A DNA stretch of 64,000 nucleotides from a virus. Positions 1,032 through 16,008 of this stretch are shown here, one piece after another (the first letter of the stretch is position 1; the number at the start of each line of letters is the position of its first letter). The stretch spans positions 1 to 64,000 of the IMG/VR virus record IMGVR_UViG_3300009514_000016; one strand, written 5' to 3'. The notes under the pieces were generated by a model. It did no database searches and had not been told where the DNA came from. It saw nothing but the letters and a program-made list of their open reading frames with translations. The position numbers and the translations under genes are program-made.

Positions 1032-4000
1032 TTAGGCATATAGTTTTGAACTGTCTATTCTGTCTTTGAGTTCAATGTTTTCTTCAGAAATCAAATCGTT
1101 TTCCCAGAAAGTTTTTCTCTGTTCAAATAGCATGTTGTCCGAATGGGCATTGTACTGATTATAGAATCCGTCTGATCTAATTCCTCCACTTGGCGCAAAG
1201 AAATGCCACCCCATTGCCTCTGGATTGACTACCATTCTGAATCCAGCTAAATGTAGGCGATAAGAAAAGTCTGTTTCTTCTCTGTGCCCTATTTTGCTAA
1301 ACATTTTATAATATCCACCAACTGATCGAGCAATATCTGTTCGATACATAAACGAGCTATAAAGATGTTCCACCGATTTCAGCAAATTGTCTCCATGTTG
1401 AAATATCTGTAAATTCATAGTGCATGGATCAATTTTACCCTGAAATTCTGGAATGTCCATATAGGTTTCTGGAGCAAATTGCTCATTTGCAGGCTTGCTC
1501 GGATCCAAATAAACTCCTCCCACTGCTGCGATATTATCCCCGTCTTTGCGCAAGAATATGTTAAACAACTTTTCCAAAAAGTTAGGCTCTAAAATCAAAT
1601 CATCATCCACTCTGCATATTAAATCATTATTTGTGTTCTCCAACACTTGTTGATGAGAAATGTGTGGGCCTTTCTGCTTCCCTCTGCTCAATAACGATCC
1701 ATGTCCGCTATTACTGATAATATTCATCAATCTAGTGATTAGATGATTTTGCAAAATAGATTCATCTTTATCATCTATTGTTAAGACCAAATCCCAATTC
1801 TTGAATGTCTGATTTCTTAAAGATTCTAATAAAGCTGCCAAATAATCATGTCGATCTCTGGTGGAAATATCTATTGTTACTCTTGAACTGCTGTCAATGG
1901 TTTTTATTTTTGGACTTTTATAAATATCTGGATGGAAATCAATAATCCATTTCTTATTTTTGCGCTCTTCTTCCATTCCGAATAGCACTGGCCACAATTC
2001 CAATGCGCTTTCTTTCCATGTCAAATGTTTGTGAACAAATTCACTGCTCTCTCTTCCGACTTCTAGGCTCTTTTGCCTATCATTGTAGGCATCAAGCATT
2101 ATTGCTTTTAGATGATCAATGTCCGCCATGGCCCAGTCCCCGCTGTCGCCTTCAACGTAGTCTGGGGCTTCAGTATAAGCTTGCGACATTCCAGAAACTT
2201 TTATCGGATACCCAATTGTTTCTGACGGATCAGCAAAGAATTCAGCAGGAGTGCTCCATTTAGTATAAGCAACTGGCAAACCTGTTGCCATTCCCTCTAA
2301 AATAGCATACCCTATGCCCTCGCCGCTGCTTGTGTGAATTAACATATCGGCATCATGGTACATTTTGACCATATCATCTGTTGAGAGCATTTTGTTTTCT
2401 TCAGTATAAACTGGAATAATATTTGCCCTGTGAGTATAAGGTTCAATCCAATCTAGAATTCCAAAGGCACTGGATCTTATGATTAGCTTGACATTTGGAT
2501 ACTCTGATTTAGGAAAAGTTTCTACAAACGCCCTAACCGCATCTATGGTTCTTTTCCTATTCTGGCAAACCCCAACATTTAATATGGTGAATTCTTCTTT
2601 CACTTCTCTTTCTTTGAAAGAGAATTTAGGGTTGATTCCCGGCCTAATAACATGGATCGGTTTTTCAATCTTAGAATTCTGCTGCACTAATTTATTGAAT
2701 TCAGAGAAAGTAATGATCCTATCCATTCCGTTGCAAGCATCAACGTAAGATGGTCGCATTTTGGTGCTCTCTGCCAAAGAAATGCCGACTTTATACCTCG
2801 CCTTGATATGTTCGAAGCTCTCCATCAAATGACAAACAATGTTAATGCTTTGGTCTATTAATAACCTAATTGACTTTGTTCTGGTTTTCTCATACAGTTG
2901 CGATATAAGTGGATCTTCAATGTTTCTTCCATTATCCCAATCATGGACATAGACATCAAATCCTAACTCATGGAGCTCTGGGATTAATCCTTCAGCGATT
3001 GTGCTAAATCCTGTTCCTTTGCCAATAAAAGTATGGAATAGAACTTTGATTTTGGATCTTGCTCCTTTGCCCCATTTTTGGTTGAGATATTCAATATTGT
3101 GTTTAATTTCTTTGGAAAGATCAAGATTCTTATTGGTTTGTCCGCTAAAATGATTCAGAGGGAAAACAGATTTTCCATTTTCATCCTCTCCTAGAGTTAC
3201 TATTTTATACCCCGCTGATTGCACTCGAATGCTCAAATCAGCATCCTCGTAATAGGCCATCTGGAAATTCTCATCAAATCCGCCGATATGATCTAAAACG
3301 CTCTTAGGCAACATGACGCAAAAACCATAATGACAGTTAAAACCAGACATAACATCGTCTCTTCTGGCAATCATTGGCCCAACAATTCCAGCATCAGGCG
3401 ACAATTGCAGAGCATCAACTAACATCGTCAGCCAACATTCTCCATTCTCACTTCTGCCAGTTACTTCGCAATCATTATTGACAAAAGCGACATAATGCCC
3501 TTTAGCTTGATCCAATCCCTGATTAGATGCCTTGCCAAAACCAAGATTCTCTTTATTTGTTATAAATCTAACTCTTGGATTAGATGCGGAAATCTGTTCC
3601 AGCCAATCCGCTGTCCCGTCAGAAGAACCGTTATCTATAAATATTATTTCGTAATTGCAGTCTGTGAAATCAGTTACGCTTTCATAAAACTTTTTTGTCA
3701 TCTCTAATTCATTATGAACTGGAGTGATAATGGAGATAAGATTTGCGTCATAAGCAACTGTTTTAATTAGGTCATCCCACTGATCGTAGACATAGTTGAA
3801 AGAAAATAGCTCCTCAGCCCGCTTCCTGGCCCTAGAACCCATTTCGAGAGCCTTTTTGGACCCATCATACTTCCAGTCTTTATAATAGCTTTCTAGGGCA
3901 TCTAAAATAGCCTGTTTAGAAGGAATTGCGTGGTCAGTTTGCAGAGGCTCATATCTCTCTACGGTTTCAATATCAATGAGATGCCCGCAATCCCCAATGA

Positions 4001-5375: not shown

Positions 5376-5738
5376 TTATATATCTTCGAATTTATTAAGC
5401 ATCTGAGCGATGTTTTCTGAGTTTCGATAACCCGCCCCATTGCAATAGGGGCAATCGTTATAGCCATTGCGGACGTAACTATCGCATTCACATGGAACTA
5501 TAACGCCACTTTCTTCCAAAGCTTGAAAGACATCTAGCATGCCTTCATAAAACTCATTCATAACTTTCTTTTTGAAGTATCTGAACTGTTCGTCCTTGGA
5601 TCCTAGCCTGAATTGCTCTAAGTCTAGAATATTCTTCATTTGGGAAAGCTGCTTTAAAAATATTTCTTTAGCAATCTGGACCATCAGAGTAGTCTCTTTC
5701 CTGGGTTTATCATAATATGCTTGAATCATAATCATCAA
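5376..5738 (-). CDS. Hypothetical protein with C-terminal CxC/CxxCxGxG zinc-binding motif
   Basis: PCECDS...CPYCNGAGY. Confidence 0.65.
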   Translation of the reverse strand: MMIMIQAYYDKPRKETTLMVQIAKEIFLKQLSQMKNILDLEQFRLGSKDEQFRYFKKKVMNEFYEGMLDVFQALEESGVIVPCECDSYVRNGYNDCPYCNGAGYRNSENIAQMLNKFEDI

Positions 5739-5790
5739 GCAATAATTACAATTTTATAATTCTAGGAATTAATCCTGCAATTATTTCCTG

Positions 5791-6483
5791 CTAAAAGTTG
5801 ACTAGATCGTCATCTCCCATTGAATCCATCGACATTTCGTCATATCCTCCAGAATCATCAACATCAAAAGATATAGTGCTGCTAGATTGAGATGCCCGTT
5901 CAAGCAATTCTTGAGACCCGCCAACCGACATAGTTAAACCAGAGTCTCTGGACACTCCTTTTGGATCCCTGGCTGCCCCTGCCCGTCTCTCTTTGTCCTT
6001 GTTGTATTTTGCCCTGATTGCGGCGCATTCCTCAAGAGTCGTTGGAACAAGAATCCCAGCTCTGATTGCTCTTTTGACGCTTTCTGTGTTTATTGTTGAG
6101 ATATCAATGTAATCTCCAGGCTGAATGGTCTTTCCTGGATCTTCTTCCCCTGGAGGAGTGTAGTCTTCAATGCAGAATGATCCAGTTTTAGATCTAAATA
6201 GAGTTGTATCTTCTGGAATATCAAACTGAGATTGCGCAGAAGTAACTGTTTGAGCGACTGCGCGAGGAACCATTGAAGCTTTTTTCTCTAGTGATTCTTT
6301 GAGATTATCTTTCTCAACTTTTTCTCCAGAATGGGCCAGCTTGACAGAATATTCTTCAAATACTTTGTCAACAATTCTGGAATAAGATGATTTTTCCAAA
6401 TCGGATTTATTGAATCTAACAACGCTCTGATCAAAGATCAAAGCAACATTTTCTCCATCAATAACAAAATAAGCATTATTCAT
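5791..6483 (-). CDS. Hypothetical protein, acidic C-terminus
   Basis: 230-aa ORF overlapping the stop of the upstream GT gene. Confidence 0.65.
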   Translation of the reverse strand: MNNAYFVIDGENVALIFDQSVVRFNKSDLEKSSYSRIVDKVFEEYSVKLAHSGEKVEKDNLKESLEKKASMVPRAVAQTVTSAQSQFDIPEDTTLFRSKTGSFCIEDYTPPGEEDPGKTIQPGDYIDISTINTESVKRAIRAGILVPTTLEECAAIRAKYNKDKERRAGAARDPKGVSRDSGLTMSVGGSQELLERASQSSSTISFDVDDSGGYDEMSMDSMGDDDLVNF

Positions 6484-8041
6484 TGGTCAGTTCCTCGTAT
6501 ATCTCTGTTAGTCTTGACTCCACTCTGTCAACGCATTTGTTCCAAGTGTAATTCTTGACTAAATCCTTGCGCAATTTATTCGCTTTCTTTTGCGCTTCTT
6601 TTTTGTTCTCATAAACATAGCGCATATGATGTCTGGTTTGTTCGACAGCCGCATCGCCAAACATTGGAAATTTTTGGCCCTCATAAAAATGTGAAATCCA
6701 AGACAGTCTGCTGTCTGAAACAACATACTTGTCAACATCAACCAAATAAGAATTGCTATCATTCAAAAATTCAGTGTGCCCTGAATAATTGCTTGAAATC
6801 ACAGGGATTTCGCATGCTCCCGCCTCGCACCCTGGGAGTCCCCATCCCTCGCCGCGACTAATCAGAACAAAGCAATCAGCGCTATTATACAATCTCGGAA
6901 GCATCGCATCTGGCATAACGTCTCCAAACAAAACAACCCTTGGCATCTTGGGATTATCAATTGAAGCTTTTATCGCCTCAACATCGCTTCTGATCTTCTT
7001 TTTCTTAACTTCTTCTGTGCTTCCAAAGTAACGAGAAGAAATCAATAACGTAACATCATCATCTCTGGTGAATTCAGATAAGAATGCTTTTAAAAGAACA
7101 TCATATCCTTTGCGATAGCTCCATCCAAACAAAGAGAGGAACACAAAATCCCCTCCCAAATTTTCTGACATTTCTAATGGGTTCAATCCAGGTTTATACT
7201 TGTCAACATCCACTCCCAAAGGCATTTTATAGATCGGAATCTTTATTCCGGCCTTTTTGAAGATATCCACATTCCATTGACTCGGCAACCAAATTTCATC
7301 TGCCATGCTGCACCTGTCAACATAATCAGGGTGCAAAGTATGAGTTTCCATCATAGTGTAGAAAATTTTTGGACCCGACCACCCTGCTCCGCTCGGCGCA
7401 GTCATTCCATATATTTTTGGGCATCCTCTGCCGACTTTCCTCTGGGTTAAAGCGCCAATCTTCTTCCCAATTTCAAAATCGATATCAGGGATGCTTGGCA
7501 ATATTTGCGGGCGGACATTTATTCCTCGCTCATCTAAGCCAAAAATATAGCGCCTATTCATATTGGCAAAACCGCCAGCGTCCAACATAGGGCCAGCATA
7601 TTCGACATCCATCACTCCTGATTCTTTATATTTGTCAAGAGAGGAATAGGATGGCCTATGAATTTCAGAATAAACAGTCATGAAAGAGTCTAGTTCTTTT
7701 TTCTCTTCCTTGACGTTCCTTGGAAGTTTTGCGACATCTGCTCTAGGCTTTTTAGAAACCACATCCAAATCAACATACTTAGACTCAGGTTTTGAAGAAG
7801 ACAAATCCTCTTTAACAGACTTGACTTGTAATTCAGAGGCGATCTGATGCGATTTCTTAAGAGTCTTATTTGAAGACACTTCTTTGAGCATGTTGTTTTT
7901 TATTGCAGTTGTTAGACATCTAGATTTTCGCGCCAGAGAATCATCTATCTCAACGACCTTGGAGCGATCTCTGTCAAATTTAACAATCACTTCGATGTCA
8001 TCTAGCAGAACATTGCCGCTATGAATATTTACAACCTTCAT
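6476..8041 (-). CDS. GT4 glycosyltransferase with N-terminal extension
   Basis: DEIWLPSQWN, RKGYDVLLKAF, SRGEGWGLPGCEAGACEIPVI. Confidence 0.88.
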   Translation of the reverse strand: MKVVNIHSGNVLLDDIEVIVKFDRDRSKVVEIDDSLARKSRCLTTAIKNNMLKEVSSNKTLKKSHQIASELQVKSVKEDLSSSKPESKYVDLDVVSKKPRADVAKLPRNVKEEKKELDSFMTVYSEIHRPSYSSLDKYKESGVMDVEYAGPMLDAGGFANMNRRYIFGLDERGINVRPQILPSIPDIDFEIGKKIGALTQRKVGRGCPKIYGMTAPSGAGWSGPKIFYTMMETHTLHPDYVDRCSMADEIWLPSQWNVDIFKKAGIKIPIYKMPLGVDVDKYKPGLNPLEMSENLGGDFVFLSLFGWSYRKGYDVLLKAFLSEFTRDDDVTLLISSRYFGSTEEVKKKKIRSDVEAIKASIDNPKMPRVVLFGDVMPDAMLPRLYNSADCFVLISRGEGWGLPGCEAGACEIPVISSNYSGHTEFLNDSNSYLVDVDKYVVSDSRLSWISHFYEGQKFPMFGDAAVEQTRHHMRYVYENKKEAQKKANKLRKDLVKNYTWNKCVDRVESRLTEIYEELTNE

Positions 8042-9414: not shown

Positions 9415-9723
9415 ATGGAAGAATTTTCAACACCACAAGAAATCCCAAGGCCAAAAGCTGAAGAACTTGTGTTCCGTGATCCAGAAACTGGGAGGCACTT
9501 CAAAACTCAAGAAGAAATGGAAATAGCCCAACAACATTGGCGCGAAAGAAAAGAACCAGAATCTTTAATAGATCCTGGCCTATACCCAGTCAGCAAAGAG
9601 CCTTGGTGGAGAAGGAAATCCTCTATAAATAAACTGATCAAAATAGCTAATAGACTAGATAAACTCGGAATGCACAAAGAGGCTGACGAAATAGATTCCT
9701 TGATTAAAAAACTCGTCAAATAG
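9415..9723 (+). CDS. Hypothetical protein with LIKIANRLDKLG-x3-EADEID helical motif
   Basis: 102-aa ORF; contains the K-x-A motif shared with presumed virion proteins. Confidence 0.65.
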   Translation: MEEFSTPQEIPRPKAEELVFRDPETGRHFKTQEEMEIAQQHWRERKEPESLIDPGLYPVSKEPWWRRKSSINKLIKIANRLDKLGMHKEADEIDSLIKKLVK

Positions 9724-9737
9724 TTTAATGGTATAAT

Positions 9738-9965
9738 ATGTCTCATCATTGCGTGAGAAATATTGTGTCAGAAATATATTACAATTTTGATCATAAAGAA
9801 GAATTGAAAATACAGCTGGTTCCATATGATCAAGATGCTTTTTGCAAAAAATATTCTAAAGAATTAGAGCCTACACTAAAAATGATGCGAGAAAACAAAA
9901 TTCGCAAAGAAGAAGAGAGACTTCGCAATATAGAAGAGAACAGATACTCAGGACTGGAAATATAA
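9738..9965 (+). CDS. Hypothetical protein, C-terminal YxxLEI tail
   Basis: Ends NRYSGLEI. Confidence 0.65.
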   Translation: MSHHCVRNIVSEIYYNFDHKEELKIQLVPYDQDAFCKKYSKELEPTLKMMRENKIRKEEERLRNIEENRYSGLEI

Positions 9966-10135
9966 TGGAAAACATTGAAGAATTATTCGCAGCAGCATTT
10001 AGGGATGCTCCTCACGAAAGTAAACATAATTTAGCTAAAGCCATGAACAAATGTCTGAAATGTTTATATCCTAGTGTTATTTTTCCTAAAATAGATGATG
10101 ATAAACAATCTGCAAAAATAGAAGGTAGCGAATAG
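9965..10135 (+). CDS. Small hypothetical protein (56 aa)
   Basis: TAATG overlap with the upstream stop; MENIEELFAAAFRDAPHESKHNLAKAMNK... Confidence 0.5.
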   Translation: MENIEELFAAAFRDAPHESKHNLAKAMNKCLKCLYPSVIFPKIDDDKQSAKIEGSE

Positions 10136-10161
10136 AAAATAAAGAATCTAGAAAAAATCAC

Positions 10162-10189
10162 TTGATGTTTTTGTGATGCGGTGTATAAT
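10162..10189 (+). promoter_or_regulatory. Sigma70-like promoter of the leader-tRNA operon
   Basis: TTGATG-16 nt-TATAAT, about 50 nt upstream of the leader ATG. Confidence 0.7.
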
Positions 10190-10239
10190 AACCCCGAGCC
10201 AAAAGCGGCAAGAAATATAAAACTTTAGAAAGAACAAAA

Positions 10240-10305
10240 ATGAAAACTATTACAATCGTGAAAAAGATGGTCATGATTAAAGGTGGAGTCCCGAGACTGC
10301 GCTAA
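10240..10305 (+). CDS. Attenuator leader peptide MKTITIVKKMVMIKGGVPRLR
   Basis: 21-codon ORF between the promoter and terminator; Lys/Ile/Val/Met codons match the downstream tRNA anticodons. Confidence 0.8.
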   Translation: MKTITIVKKMVMIKGGVPRLR

Positions 10306-10341
10306 TAGTTCTCATTTGCTTGAACTAGAGCCGGTCCTGGG
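10290..10341 (+). promoter_or_regulatory. Antiterminator hairpin (alternative to the terminator)
   Basis: CCCGAGACTGCGCTAATAGTTC (10290-10311) pairs with GAACTAGAGCCGGTCCTGGG (10322-10341), sequestering the terminator 5' arm. Confidence 0.7.
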
Positions 10342-10367
10342 AAACCAAGATCGGCTCTTTTCTTTTT
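10327..10367 (+). terminator. Intrinsic terminator directly upstream of the tRNA array (attenuator)
   Basis: AGAGCCGGTCCTGG-GAAA-CCAAGATCGGCTCT followed by TTTCTTTTT; the first tRNA starts 3 nt later. Confidence 0.85.
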
Positions 10368-10369
10368 AT

Positions 10370-10449
10370 GGGCGTATATCCGCTCTGCTTTACACGCAGT
10401 CGAAACGGTAATTGGTTACATAGGGGTTCGATCCCCTTTACGCCTACCA
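10370..10449 (+). tRNA. Non-canonical tRNA-Val(TAC)-like gene
   Basis: Acceptor GGGCGTA/TACGCCT-A-CCA, T-arm AGGGG-TTCGATC-CCCTT, anticodon arm CTGC-TTTACAC-GCAG. No D-arm at the normal position. Confidence 0.65.
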
Positions 10450-10455
10450 AATAAT

Positions 10456-10531
10456 GATCGGGTAGTTCAGTTGGAAGAACGCAATGCTGACATCATTGAG
10501 GCCGCAGGTTCAAGTCCTGCCTCGATCACCA
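10456..10531 (+). tRNA. tRNA-Val(GAC)
   Basis: Cloverleaf; anticodon arm CAATG-CTGACAT-CATTG; encoded CCA. Confidence 0.92.
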
Positions 10532-10614
10532 ATAATCTGAGACGAACGCGAATTGGTTATCTACGATTAATAGGAAAACCCCAATTTGCAATAAACTTGT
10601 TCAGATTAATTATT

Positions 10615-10692
10615 GGCTGCGTAACTCAATTTGGTCAGAGTAGCACTTTCATACGGTGCAAGTTGTAGGTTCGAATCCTACCGCAGCTACCA
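10615..10692 (+). tRNA. tRNA-CAT (elongator Met favoured; Ile2 not excluded)
   Basis: GCACT-TTCATAC-GGTGC anticodon arm; lacks initiator features; encoded CCA. Confidence 0.88.
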
Positions 10693-10733
10693 AAGGTCAG
10701 ATTTTCTAGAAATAGAAAATTACCAAATATTTT

Positions 10734-10810
10734 GGGTCTGTGGTGTAACGGTTAACACACTATTCTGATAAAATAGAGACAGCTTGGTTCAATTCCAGCC
10801 AGACCTACCA
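10734..10810 (+). tRNA. tRNA-Ile(GAT)
   Basis: CTATT-CTGATAA-AATAG; encoded CCA. Confidence 0.9.
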
Positions 10811-10819
10811 GTAAAATAT

Positions 10820-10897
10820 AGGACGATAGCTAAATTGGCACAGCATTCGGCTCTTAACCGAAAGATTATCTGGGTTCAAATCCCAGTCGTCCTACCA
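10820..10897 (+). tRNA. tRNA-Lys(CTT)
   Basis: TTCGG-CTCTTAA-CCGAA; encoded CCA. Confidence 0.92.
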
Positions 10898-10905
10898 AAC
10901 AATTT

Positions 10906-10993
10906 GGGTCCATTGCCTAGCGGACGAAGGCACCGGGCTTTTAACCCGGAGTGCGTAAGCCCATCGAAGGTTCGAATCCTTCTGGACCCACCA
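10906..10993 (+). tRNA. tRNA-Lys(TTT) with long variable arm
   Basis: CCGGG-CTTTTAA-CCCGG; 16-nt variable region; encoded CCA. Confidence 0.88.
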
Positions 10994-11030
10994 ATAAAAA
11001 GAGACCACAGTAATGTGGTCTCTTTTTATT
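10993..11030. terminator. Bidirectional intrinsic terminator closing the tRNA operon
   Basis: AATAAAAAGAGACCAC-AGTAAT-GTGGTCTCTTTTTATT between convergent units. Confidence 0.85.
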
Positions 11031-11058
11031 TAAGCATTAAAGAAATAATTTAACTATG

Positions 11059-11724
11059 TTATTTATTTTCTCTCTCTTTTGTCGTTTTTATTTTATTTTT
11101 ATTTCTATTAGGTTCGACACTGTTTTTCATGTGACTATTCATTGATGTAGAACCATTTTTATAGTGTACTGAATAACCATTAGAATCTATTCTGGCAGGC
11201 CCGTCAGCTCTGTGTAGTTTCCCATTTCTATGCCATTTTAAATTGCCATTATGCATCCATGATGGTCTGTCGTCCCAACTATGCAGTTCGCCTTTGTGGT
11301 TTACTGTATATTGCGCCCCTGTTTCTTTATCAGTTCTGTATTCTTTGTAATTCGCTATCGGGACAGCTAGAGCGAATATTTCTACCAATTCATTAATTTT
11401 TGAATCAACATTCTTTATCTGCATTTGCAAAGATGTTTTTATTGAATTGCAGTATTGTTTTATTTCCATTATCTTCTCATGAACTGTGTCATAACTTATG
11501 TCTGGAAAGTCAAGTGAGCATTTTTCATTTAAATATGAATCGATTGAATCGATTAATGAATTTTCTTCAGATTCTTCATTGTCGTCAATGTCTATCGAAA
11601 TGGTATCTTTAGTTATATGATTTGGGGCAGATGGATCTATGTAATCTGGCGCATGGCGTTTTATTTTATCATTTTTATTGATCAGTTCATTTGCGATTTT
11701 TAATTTGTTAATATCAATTCCCAT
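11059..11724 (-). CDS. Hypothetical protein with LHRxDGPA-type repeats
   Basis: GELHSWDDRPSW, GKLHRADGPARI; a repeat type common in large viruses. Confidence 0.7.
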   Translation of the reverse strand: MGIDINKLKIANELINKNDKIKRHAPDYIDPSAPNHITKDTISIDIDDNEESEENSLIDSIDSYLNEKCSLDFPDISYDTVHEKIMEIKQYCNSIKTSLQMQIKNVDSKINELVEIFALAVPIANYKEYRTDKETGAQYTVNHKGELHSWDDRPSWMHNGNLKWHRNGKLHRADGPARIDSNGYSVHYKNGSTSMNSHMKNSVEPNRNKNKIKTTKERENK

Positions 11725-15489: not shown

Positions 15490-15969
15490 TTAACACGTCT
15501 CGCTGTAATTGCATTGACTGCAAATCAAAGCGTTTCCTTTTGGACTCATTGACTGCTCTATCGGTTTACATACCGGGCATTTCCAATGCAGTTGTCTCCC
15601 CCTGTCTATGGCTGGCCAATGATCTTCATGAATAACTTCTCTTTGTTCGCTGTGCATATTAGTGTAACTATAAAATTCATCTGAATCTATATGGAACATT
15701 TCACTTCCATTGATTTTACACCTGTCCCACGACCCAAGTTTGCCCTTTAATTTTTTGAAAAGGTCATCTATTTCAGAGTCATTGAATTTATATTCTGGTT
15801 GCGGTCGAAATCTGCCATCTCCATCAGCGTAAAATGCGACAGTTCTAGATGAGCCAGCGCTCCCAAGATATCTCATTTGCTCAAACAACTCATACAGAGC
15901 CATCGTATCAGCGACATCCAAATTCGGAATGGTTACTGTAAAATCTACTTTTTTATTTTTAGTGTCCAT
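15490..15969 (-). CDS. Hypothetical protein with C-terminal zinc ribbon
   Basis: GSSRTVAFYADGDGRFRP motif; CPVC...CSQC. Confidence 0.75.
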   Translation of the reverse strand: MDTKNKKVDFTVTIPNLDVADTMALYELFEQMRYLGSAGSSRTVAFYADGDGRFRPQPEYKFNDSEIDDLFKKLKGKLGSWDRCKINGSEMFHIDSDEFYSYTNMHSEQREVIHEDHWPAIDRGRQLHWKCPVCKPIEQSMSPKGNALICSQCNYSETC

Positions 15970-16008
15970 AATTGTCCTTGCATAGAGTCCGTTACATTAT
16001 ACATGAGA

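Follow-up and report, generated by a model that had tools for sequence, protein, structure and literature searches.

Neither the reason why large phages carry transfer RNA (tRNA) genes nor the way in which these genes are regulated is well understood, and accounts of phage tRNA clusters generally invoke co-transcription with neighbouring genes or simple promoters. The regulation of one such cluster was examined in IMG/VR virus record IMGVR_UViG_3300009514_000016 (i.e. G000 in the comparisons below), using a stretch of 64,000 nucleotides (nt), hereafter the window, that forms the start of the 80,185-nt record. On the + strand of the window a promoter-like site, a short open reading frame (ORF), an intrinsic terminator, six tRNA-type genes and a final terminator follow one another from 10162 to about 11029. 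An earlier inspection of the letters (i.e. the sequence-only reading) had proposed that the ORF is a leader peptide whose codons list those decoded by the array, and each of these elements was found where it had been placed. Does this short ORF control the genes behind it? The analyses described here suggest that the G000 element is probably a ribosome-mediated (i.e. leader-peptide) transcription attenuator of the trp/ilv type that controls a phage tRNA operon.

Codon content of the leader ORF

The promoter-like site (10162-10189, +) is of the sigma-70 type (TTGATG-16-TATAAT, with a G before the -10 element) and, with 10 of 12 matches, was the joint best within the 3.5 kb scanned. The extended form of this site (TTGA-N-GTATAAT) occurs three times in the window as compared to an expectation of 0.2. 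The leader ORF (10240-10305, +) starts with an ATG at 10240, contains 21 codons followed by a TAA (10303-10305) and then an in-frame TAG, and encodes MKTITIVKKMVMIKGGVPRLR. A weak Shine-Dalgarno-like sequence (AGAAAGAA; 10227-10234, +) lies 5 nt before the ATG. Many long ORFs of the same phage have GGA, AGGA or GGAG at this position, and others are equally weak and A/G-rich.

Matches between leader codons and array anticodons were scored under strict wobble rules (i.e. G34 reads C/U, U34 reads A/G and C34 reads G). A putative control block, codons 6-14 (ATC GTG AAA AAG ATG GTC ATG ATT AAA; 10255-10281, +), is read by the array in its entirety (9/9), and the array also decodes 12 of the first 14 codons and 12 of the 20 that follow the start codon. 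The first two of these counts were those of the sequence-only reading and held under the strict rules, and all six array anticodons are represented among the leader codons. The leader was then ranked among the small ORFs of the 80-kb record (1015 ATG-initiated frames of 10-75 codons), in which the codon set of the array accounts for 18.5% of codons. The mean best window of these small ORFs was 2.6 of 9, and a 9/9 window was observed for the leader only.

Terminator and alternative structures of the leader RNA

The intrinsic terminator (10327-10367, +) consists of a stem (10327-10340 / 10345-10358) with a GAAA loop, followed by the U tract TTTTCTTTTT, in which 9 of 10 nucleotides are U. Its predicted stability is -21.7 to -22.5 kcal/mol, and an internal mismatch caused it to be missed by a consensus scan. 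Only 2 nt separate the U tract from the first tRNA-type gene at 10370. A promoter between the terminator and this gene, which the sequence-only reading had recognized as a threat to its own proposal, was not detected in a promoter scan of the + strand.

The leader RNA was more structured than its shuffles (z = -5.7) and can adopt three mutually exclusive pairings (i.e. 1:2, 2:3 and 3:4), the last of which is the terminator. Segment 1 (10238-10251, +) pairs with 10304-10317 (+), thereby burying the AUG, and this partner is, jointly with a local hairpin at 10282-10303, a candidate anti-antiterminator. The fold of 10230-10322 that contains the 1:2 helix has a free energy of -24.2 kcal/mol (z -3.9), with local hairpins at 10254-10278 and 10282-10303 beside the helix. 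Segment 2 (10289-10311, +) is the 5' strand of the predicted antiterminator and spans the final five sense codons together with the stop, and segment 3 (10322-10342, +) is its 3' strand and overlaps the 5' arm of the terminator. The 2:3 pairing, for which 10290-10311 and 10322-10341 had been proposed, comprises 19 base pairs (bp) between 10289-10311 and 10322-10342 with a free energy of -24.5 kcal/mol (z = -4.04 as compared to dinucleotide shuffles). The attenuator geometry claimed for this leader is present in the predicted folds, with all three helices and with the stop codon within segment 2.

The consequences of a translating ribosome were modelled using a co-transcriptional snapshot of the RNA (10196-10345), in which only the 5' arm and loop of the terminator have been made, and a ribosome mask extending from -15 to +12 relative to the codon in the A site. 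The full antiterminator was retained for A-site positions at codons 2-13, whilst a partial antiterminator was seen for codons 14-15 and none from codon 16 to the stop. As the array-read block extends over codons 6-14, it ends at the boundary of the zone that permits antitermination. The sequence-level features of a leader-peptide attenuator that could be tested are present in the G000 element, with the exception of termination of an untranslated leader through the 1:2 helix (see below).

Leader codons and array anticodons in distant relatives

Relatives of this phage were identified by portal protein at 50-57% identity and include the complete genomes G001, G005, G008 and G010 (461-548 kb), which carry 27-77 tRNAs each. 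Leader and array pairs were chosen blind to ORF content, the requirement being a terminator hairpin that ends 35 nt or less before the first tRNA of an array, and the nearest upstream ATG-ORF was taken as the leader. Seven pairs were obtained from G000, G001, G005 and G010, with a negative pair from G010 being retained, and were scored against the small ORFs of their own genomes. The combined probability was highly significant (Fisher's p = 5.4e-8), and the observed diagonal was reached by 3 of 5040 permutations of the array labels. Covariation of leader codons with the anticodons of the adjacent array, a test put forward in the sequence-only reading, was observed in two distant relatives as well as in Bacillus phage G (see below).

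The composition of these leaders differs widely. In G001, the leader MTMQSVTLHLGLLLLA (CTC CTC TTG CTG TTA CTC) precedes an array of Leu-CAA, CAG, GAG, TAG and TAA tRNAs, and a leader containing RQFTKTITTTAKQHAVDAFMRRWYDANGCGTKGLGG precedes an array for Gln, Trp, Gly, Cys, Lys, Gly, Thr, Asp, Arg, Ala, Phe and Ala. In G005, the leader MQQIIVHVGIVITT stands before Val-TAC, His, Ile-GAT, Val-GAC and CAT tRNAs, a leader containing NQRKQAWRQFAYAGFAARNAKGLGP before Ala, Phe, Gln-CTG, Arg-ACG, Ala, Ala and Tyr tRNAs, and the leader MKTMTSTTGHMTTTQSGGSCGGTSSCAMAGSGPSGP before Gly, Gly and Thr tRNAs with Thr, Met, Gln, Ser, Cys, Gly and Thr genes farther downstream. When the Gly/Thr leader was scored against this extended series, 29 of 35 codons matched (p 2e-10). 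The core of the Ala/Phe/Gln/Arg/Tyr leader (QRKQAWRQFAYAGFAARNA) contains CAG and CGY codons, which are read by the CTG and ACG anticodons of its array, and AGR and CAA are confined to the parts of this leader outside the core. No match was observed for the G010 leader MRPVTRFFNKIC, which precedes Arg, Arg and Trp tRNAs.

A content-based screen detected further candidates, namely a Gln leader (MQQQQSQSSQ...) ahead of three tRNA-Gln genes, a second Leu leader and two Glu leaders; having been chosen on content, these were left out of the statistics. Clear GGAG Shine-Dalgarno sites precede the leaders of the relatives. In four of the five terminator-bearing leaders from relatives, the 5' arm of the terminator can pair with the 3' part of the ORF or with the bases just past the stop, the antiterminator being less clear in the G001 Leu leader. 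Two long leaders have an antiterminator-encoding ...KGLG... segment in common, whilst their control segments vary with the arrays (Thr 7 versus 1, Gly 7 versus 4, Asp 2 versus 0 and Cys 1 versus 0). The ribosome-mask analysis gave noisy results for the long leaders of the relatives.

Two short sequence elements were also noted around these leaders. A near-identical box, GAGGGAGGAAGTGACGCCGYAAGGCGGTATACT, lies ahead of two different tRNA leaders in G005 (L039, about 6165-6200 and about 15940-15975) and is likely to be a promoter or regulator site specific to the phage. In G001, G005 and G003, copies of the motif (C)AACTGAAGA lie downstream of the leader stop and ahead of the first tRNA (L048, about 2722-2735; L055, about 3025-3040; the L052 (-) and L044 (-) leaders; L041 (-)). 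Some of the leaders associated with this motif (i.e. Glu leaders) have no clear U tract, and another route of termination or processing is therefore possible for them.

A matched leader in cultured Bacillus phage G

As judged by its portal, Bacillus phage G is the closest phage in culture (33.6% identity). The first tRNA cluster of this phage is preceded by a promoter-like site (CTGTTA-N18-TATAAT) and by gp86, an annotated hypothetical gene (MMKCSWFEFDTDFTDVFYCEYTFYSLYTFLDIRKQLQKSRGCLT, beginning MMKCSWFEFDTDFTDVFYCEYTFYSLYTF) with a strong Shine-Dalgarno sequence (GAGAGGTGA). Past gp86 there is a strong terminator (AGCTGATTC-GTATA-GAATCAGCT, then T5), behind which lie eight tRNA genes (Cys, Asp, Phe, Tyr, Glu, Thr, Ser and Trp) and, scattered among them, a few ORFs. 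Codons 4-31 of gp86 specify almost exclusively C, S, W, F, E, D, T and Y, i.e. all eight amino acids of the cluster. Strict wobble rules allow the cluster to decode 23 of the 28 codons in this control block, as compared to a background frequency of 0.25 (binomial p 4e-10), and gp86 was top-ranked among local small ORFs. A predicted antiterminator strand, ACGAAAACAACTCCAG, lies immediately downstream of these codons and would pair with the 5' arm of the terminator. Together with the units of the relatives, the phage G unit indicates that the design occurs in phages of hosts as different as a Gram-positive soil bacterium and marine hosts.

Phage G also contains a six-codon mini-ORF (ATG AGA GAT TTG ATG AAA TAA; L179, about 1395-1420), which forms part of a hairpin downstream of a promoter and ahead of tRNA-Arg(TCT). 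The second codon, AGA, is read by that tRNA, and the mini-ORF is too short to judge.

Proposed mechanism and rival explanations

Regulation of the array is envisaged as follows. Transcription would begin at the 10162-10189 promoter, or enter from the upstream + strand genes, and a ribosome would translate the 21-codon leader. When Ile, Val, Lys and Met tRNAs are plentiful and charged, the ribosome would reach the stop codon (10303) and cover segment 2 (10289-10311), so that the terminator at 10327-10367 could form and transcription would end 2 nt before the first tRNA gene. Slow decoding of any of codons 6-14 would stall the ribosome upstream of segment 2, which would then be free to pair with 10322-10342 and allow RNA polymerase to read through into the six tRNA genes. 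The new tRNAs would lift the stall, and this negative feedback would match tRNA supply to decoding demand. The phage would thus probably make these tRNAs only upon slow decoding of the leader codons. In this model the sensor would respond to decoding rate, such that low tRNA abundance, cleavage, poor charging and amino-acid starvation would be indistinguishable to it. We infer translation of the leader, coupling of transcription to translation, kinetic switching and the nature of the physiological trigger.

The sequence-only reading had also described the leader as a multi-input OR gate. Attenuation by several amino acids is already known for the ilvGMEDA and thr leaders. A further suggestion, that the input is damage by host anticodon nucleases (e.g. 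PrrC, AriB and VapC), is speculation. In such a counter-defence circuit, a nuclease would cut, for example, tRNA-Lys(UUU), the leader would stall and replacement tRNAs that escape the nuclease would be produced, each leader being a multi-input OR gate adjusted to those tRNAs for which its array provides replacements; a role of this kind is conceivable but doubtful. The escaping bodies might, speculatively, be the long-arm tRNA-Lys(UUU) and the rearranged Val-TAC tRNA described below.

Several observations weigh against control by attenuation. The complete leader at equilibrium formed the terminator for every modelled position of the ribosome, and any switch must therefore be kinetic, as in trp; the equilibrium fold does not discriminate between the states. 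In the snapshot without a ribosome the minimum-energy fold was the antiterminator even though the 1:2 helix exists, which makes the behaviour of an untranslated leader uncertain. The helices of the G000 leader are not open to a covariation test because no close relative was found. Matched leaders were not found for many arrays in G008 and G010, for most of the array starts that follow ORFs, nor for the second tRNA cluster of phage G, and the tRNA region of phage XacN1 has neither terminator-abutted arrays nor a matched leader. To these may be added the weak Shine-Dalgarno site of the G000 leader, the Thr codons (ACT and ACA) among its first codons, for which the array has no tRNA-Thr, and the G010 Arg/Trp array, which is abutted by a terminator and yet has an unmatched ORF.

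Some of these points would also be accommodated by other explanations. The Thr codons, and the retention of the antiterminator in the footprint model for a stall anywhere in codons 2-13, are compatible with a genuine attenuator that senses any slowing of translation or global stress rather than the supply of array tRNAs, the codon list being only loosely relevant. A precedent for such a trigger is the Anabaena trn array, for which general translational stress has been reported as the inducer (PMC8421152, PMC10272220). Codon content, however, tracks array content in at least eight arrays with very different tRNA sets, and specificity extends to individual codons in the G005 core (i.e. CAG not CAA and CGY not AGR), so that a general sensor is unlikely. 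The weak ribosome-binding site and the unmatched G010 pair could equally be cited in favour of an ordinary small gene or the end of an upstream operon, with the tRNAs expressed by constitutive leak-through of the terminator and the codon match being incidental; the upstream + strand genes (9415-10135) indeed have no terminator of their own before 10327. Such an arrangement is quite unlikely given the dedicated promoter between the upstream gene and the leader, a 9/9 match that is unique among 1015 ORFs, the overlap of the 19-bp antiterminator with the stop codon and the recurrence of the design with different codon lists.

The high degree of structure in the leader (z -5.7) raises the question of whether the device consists of RNA only, either as a trans-acting small RNA freed at the terminator or through T-box-like pairing of tRNA with the leader independently of the ribosome. 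Terminated attenuator RNAs can act in trans, as is reported for Sinorhizobium rnTrpL (PMC6614838), but a function in trans would add to attenuation and not replace it. A scan of 9500-11500 against Rfam at E <= 1 returned tRNA-related matches only and no T-box; the identification of the G000 leader as a T-box riboswitch was rejected on this ground and because the codons lie in a translatable ORF. Moreover, in every example the matching codons share one frame that runs from an ATG to a stop at the antiterminator, and an RNA-only device is accordingly very unlikely. Chance resemblance within an AT-rich intergenic region would draw on the abundance of Lys, Ile, Met and Val codons in AT-rich DNA, where the array set covers 18.5% of the background. 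Set against this are the empirical rank of 1/1015, the location of the ORF exactly between a promoter and an array-abutting terminator, and replication in other genomes (p 5e-8) and in phage G (p 4e-10), such that coincidence is scarcely credible. Leader-peptide attenuation is the explanation that we favour for the G000 element.

The tRNA array and a non-canonical tRNA-like family

Five of the six tRNAs counted in the sequence-only reading were called by ARAGORN and Rfam, all on the + strand: tRNA-Val (GAC; 10456-10531), a tRNA with anticodon CAT (Met, with an Ile2 identity being possible; 10615-10692), tRNA-Ile (GAT; 10734-10810), tRNA-Lys (CTT; 10820-10897) and tRNA-Lys (TTT; 10906-10993). 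The sixth, the 'Val-TAC' gene at the head of the array (10370-10449, +), was called by neither and is a non-canonical tRNA-like gene with anticodon TAC (Val) and an encoded CCA. A terminator of -16.8 kcal/mol (about 10996-11029, +) closes the array.

The tRNA-Lys(TTT) has a long variable arm of 16 nt, is conserved (85-87 nt) in G001, G005 and G010, and matches the annotated tRNA-Lys of the cultured jumbo phages XacN1, Serratia phage BF and Erwinia phages; in a blastn search against cultured phages tRNA-Lys was the sole match. The 83-nt spacer between tRNA-Val and the CAT tRNA (10532-10614) forms a long hairpin (-17.8 kcal/mol, z -3.5) that is not tRNA-like and has no match in Rfam.

The non-canonical gene departs from a normal tRNA in its D region. 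A 7-bp acceptor stem is followed by TA and by a 3-bp stem (CCG / CGG) enclosing the anticodon hairpin, whose 7-nt loop (TT-TAC-AC) has T33 and R37. Downstream of the 3-bp stem, an unpaired strand that contains GG (TAATTGGTTACAT) leads to a normal T arm with a TTCGATC-type loop, which is followed by a discriminator base and CCA. No D stem closes a D loop in this gene; the stem formed by positions 12-14 and 38-40 encloses the anticodon arm. In a G010 homologue (L037 5397-5476, -) the acceptor stem differs, the 3-bp stem is preserved as CCC / GGG through compensatory changes and the anticodon is TCT.

When metagenome contigs were searched with an exact pattern derived from the Val-TAC gene, no hits were obtained. 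A family pattern built from the G000 and G010 copies matched more than 116 IMG/VR contigs (loci L060-L175), giving 93 distinct sequences with the anticodons TAT (68), TCT (13), GAT (5), CCT (5) and TCG (1). ARAGORN missed 87 of 92 family members. When the proposed structure was imposed on 61 diverse members, 94% of cells were paired, and covarying pairs were observed for all 7 positions of the acceptor stem, four of the anticodon stem and four of the T stem. The observed covariation score was reached in 0 of 500 shuffles, with slid controls also falling far below it. The same family occurs in about 77 cultured Streptomyces phages, in which it is almost always unannotated. As judged from this covariation and distribution, 10370-10449 belongs to a real and widespread tRNA-like family with a rearranged D region. 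A link between this family and the leaders was considered and rejected, since a terminator lies upstream of only one of the 93 members.

Phage context and other features of the tRNA regions

The 80,185-nt record encodes a portal, a large terminase, GroEL and several glycosyltransferases and has a CheckV completeness of about 17%, which together indicate a fragment of a very large phage. The proteins that flank the leader region had no matches in IMG/VR, and a 221-amino-acid neighbouring protein matched only itself among 5.8 billion proteins. A search with a degenerate leader-peptide pattern also gave no hits.

Suppressor-type tRNAs for all three stop codons were observed across these huge phages (L045 and L054, CTA; L048 4827-4897, TCA; L179 9433-9507 of phage G, TTA; and the 'tRNA-Sup' of XacN1, L176 25495-25653) and hint at stop-codon read-through or recoding. 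ORFs resembling HNH/homing endonucleases and ending in ...GRKYxVSDNxIRKW... lie among the tRNA genes and directly abut them (L037 about 5480-6180 (-) in G010; L042 about 7133-7231 in G015).

Relationship to known systems

Leader attenuators of the enterobacteria include those of ilvGMEDA (Ile/Leu/Val) and thr (Thr/Ile) as well as trpL, hisL, leuL and pheL. The phage element shares with them a promoter, a short ORF rich in regulatory codons, 1:2, 2:3 and 3:4 helices, a stop codon beside segment 2, an intrinsic terminator and a predicted response to several amino acids, and the phage Leu leaders (LHLGLLLLA) resemble leuL. Enterobacterial leaders, which have been modelled for the amino-acid operons (PMC1183508), regulate biosynthetic enzymes, whereas the targets of the phage element are tRNAs and reside in a phage; with tRNA as its output, the loop would feed back on the tRNA pool itself. 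The phage leaders differ further in listing up to 8-10 amino acids with codons matched to the array anticodons.

Genes of the translation apparatus are also known to be controlled by stalling of ribosomes at cognate codons, an example being pheST of Escherichia coli, an aminoacyl-tRNA synthetase gene with the leader-peptide attenuator pheM. In these synthetase systems the product is a protein and each leader serves one amino acid. Leader peptides for hisS/hisZ in bacilli are described in a genome-wide survey of premature terminators, which reports leader peptides for amino-acid and synthetase genes and makes no mention of tRNA genes or tRNA operons (PMC2965389). T-boxes resemble the phage element in that the choice between terminator and antiterminator is set by the state of specific tRNAs via codon-anticodon complementarity, but need no ribosome, as they bind the uncharged tRNA itself by means of a specifier loop and the T-box sequence.

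The nearest published example of a regulated accessory tRNA array is the trn operon of Anabaena sp. PCC 7120, which is without leader control. According to the reports on this operon, a long and otherwise silent tRNA array is switched on by impaired translation (PMC8421152, PMC10272220). Unlike the phage element, this array is bacterial and not codon-specific and is controlled by a protein repressor, TrcR, acting at the promoter, and the terms 'attenuat', 'leader' and 'terminator' are absent from the trn paper. No published leader-peptide control of tRNA genes or of phage tRNA arrays was found in the full-text literature searched, which includes few papers from subscription journals. To our knowledge, the leader-attenuation mechanism has until now been known for amino-acid and synthetase genes.

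The leader ORFs of these phages are currently unannotated or labelled as hypothetical proteins, and the leader content would allow a prediction, from the genome alone, of which array tRNAs a phage treats as limiting in its host. Cultured Bacillus phage G, with gp86 and its terminator, is a directly testable system. If the attenuation model is correct, the phage would gauge the speed of decoding for the codons served by its array and make those tRNAs on demand, which would amount to closed-loop control of the tRNA pool.

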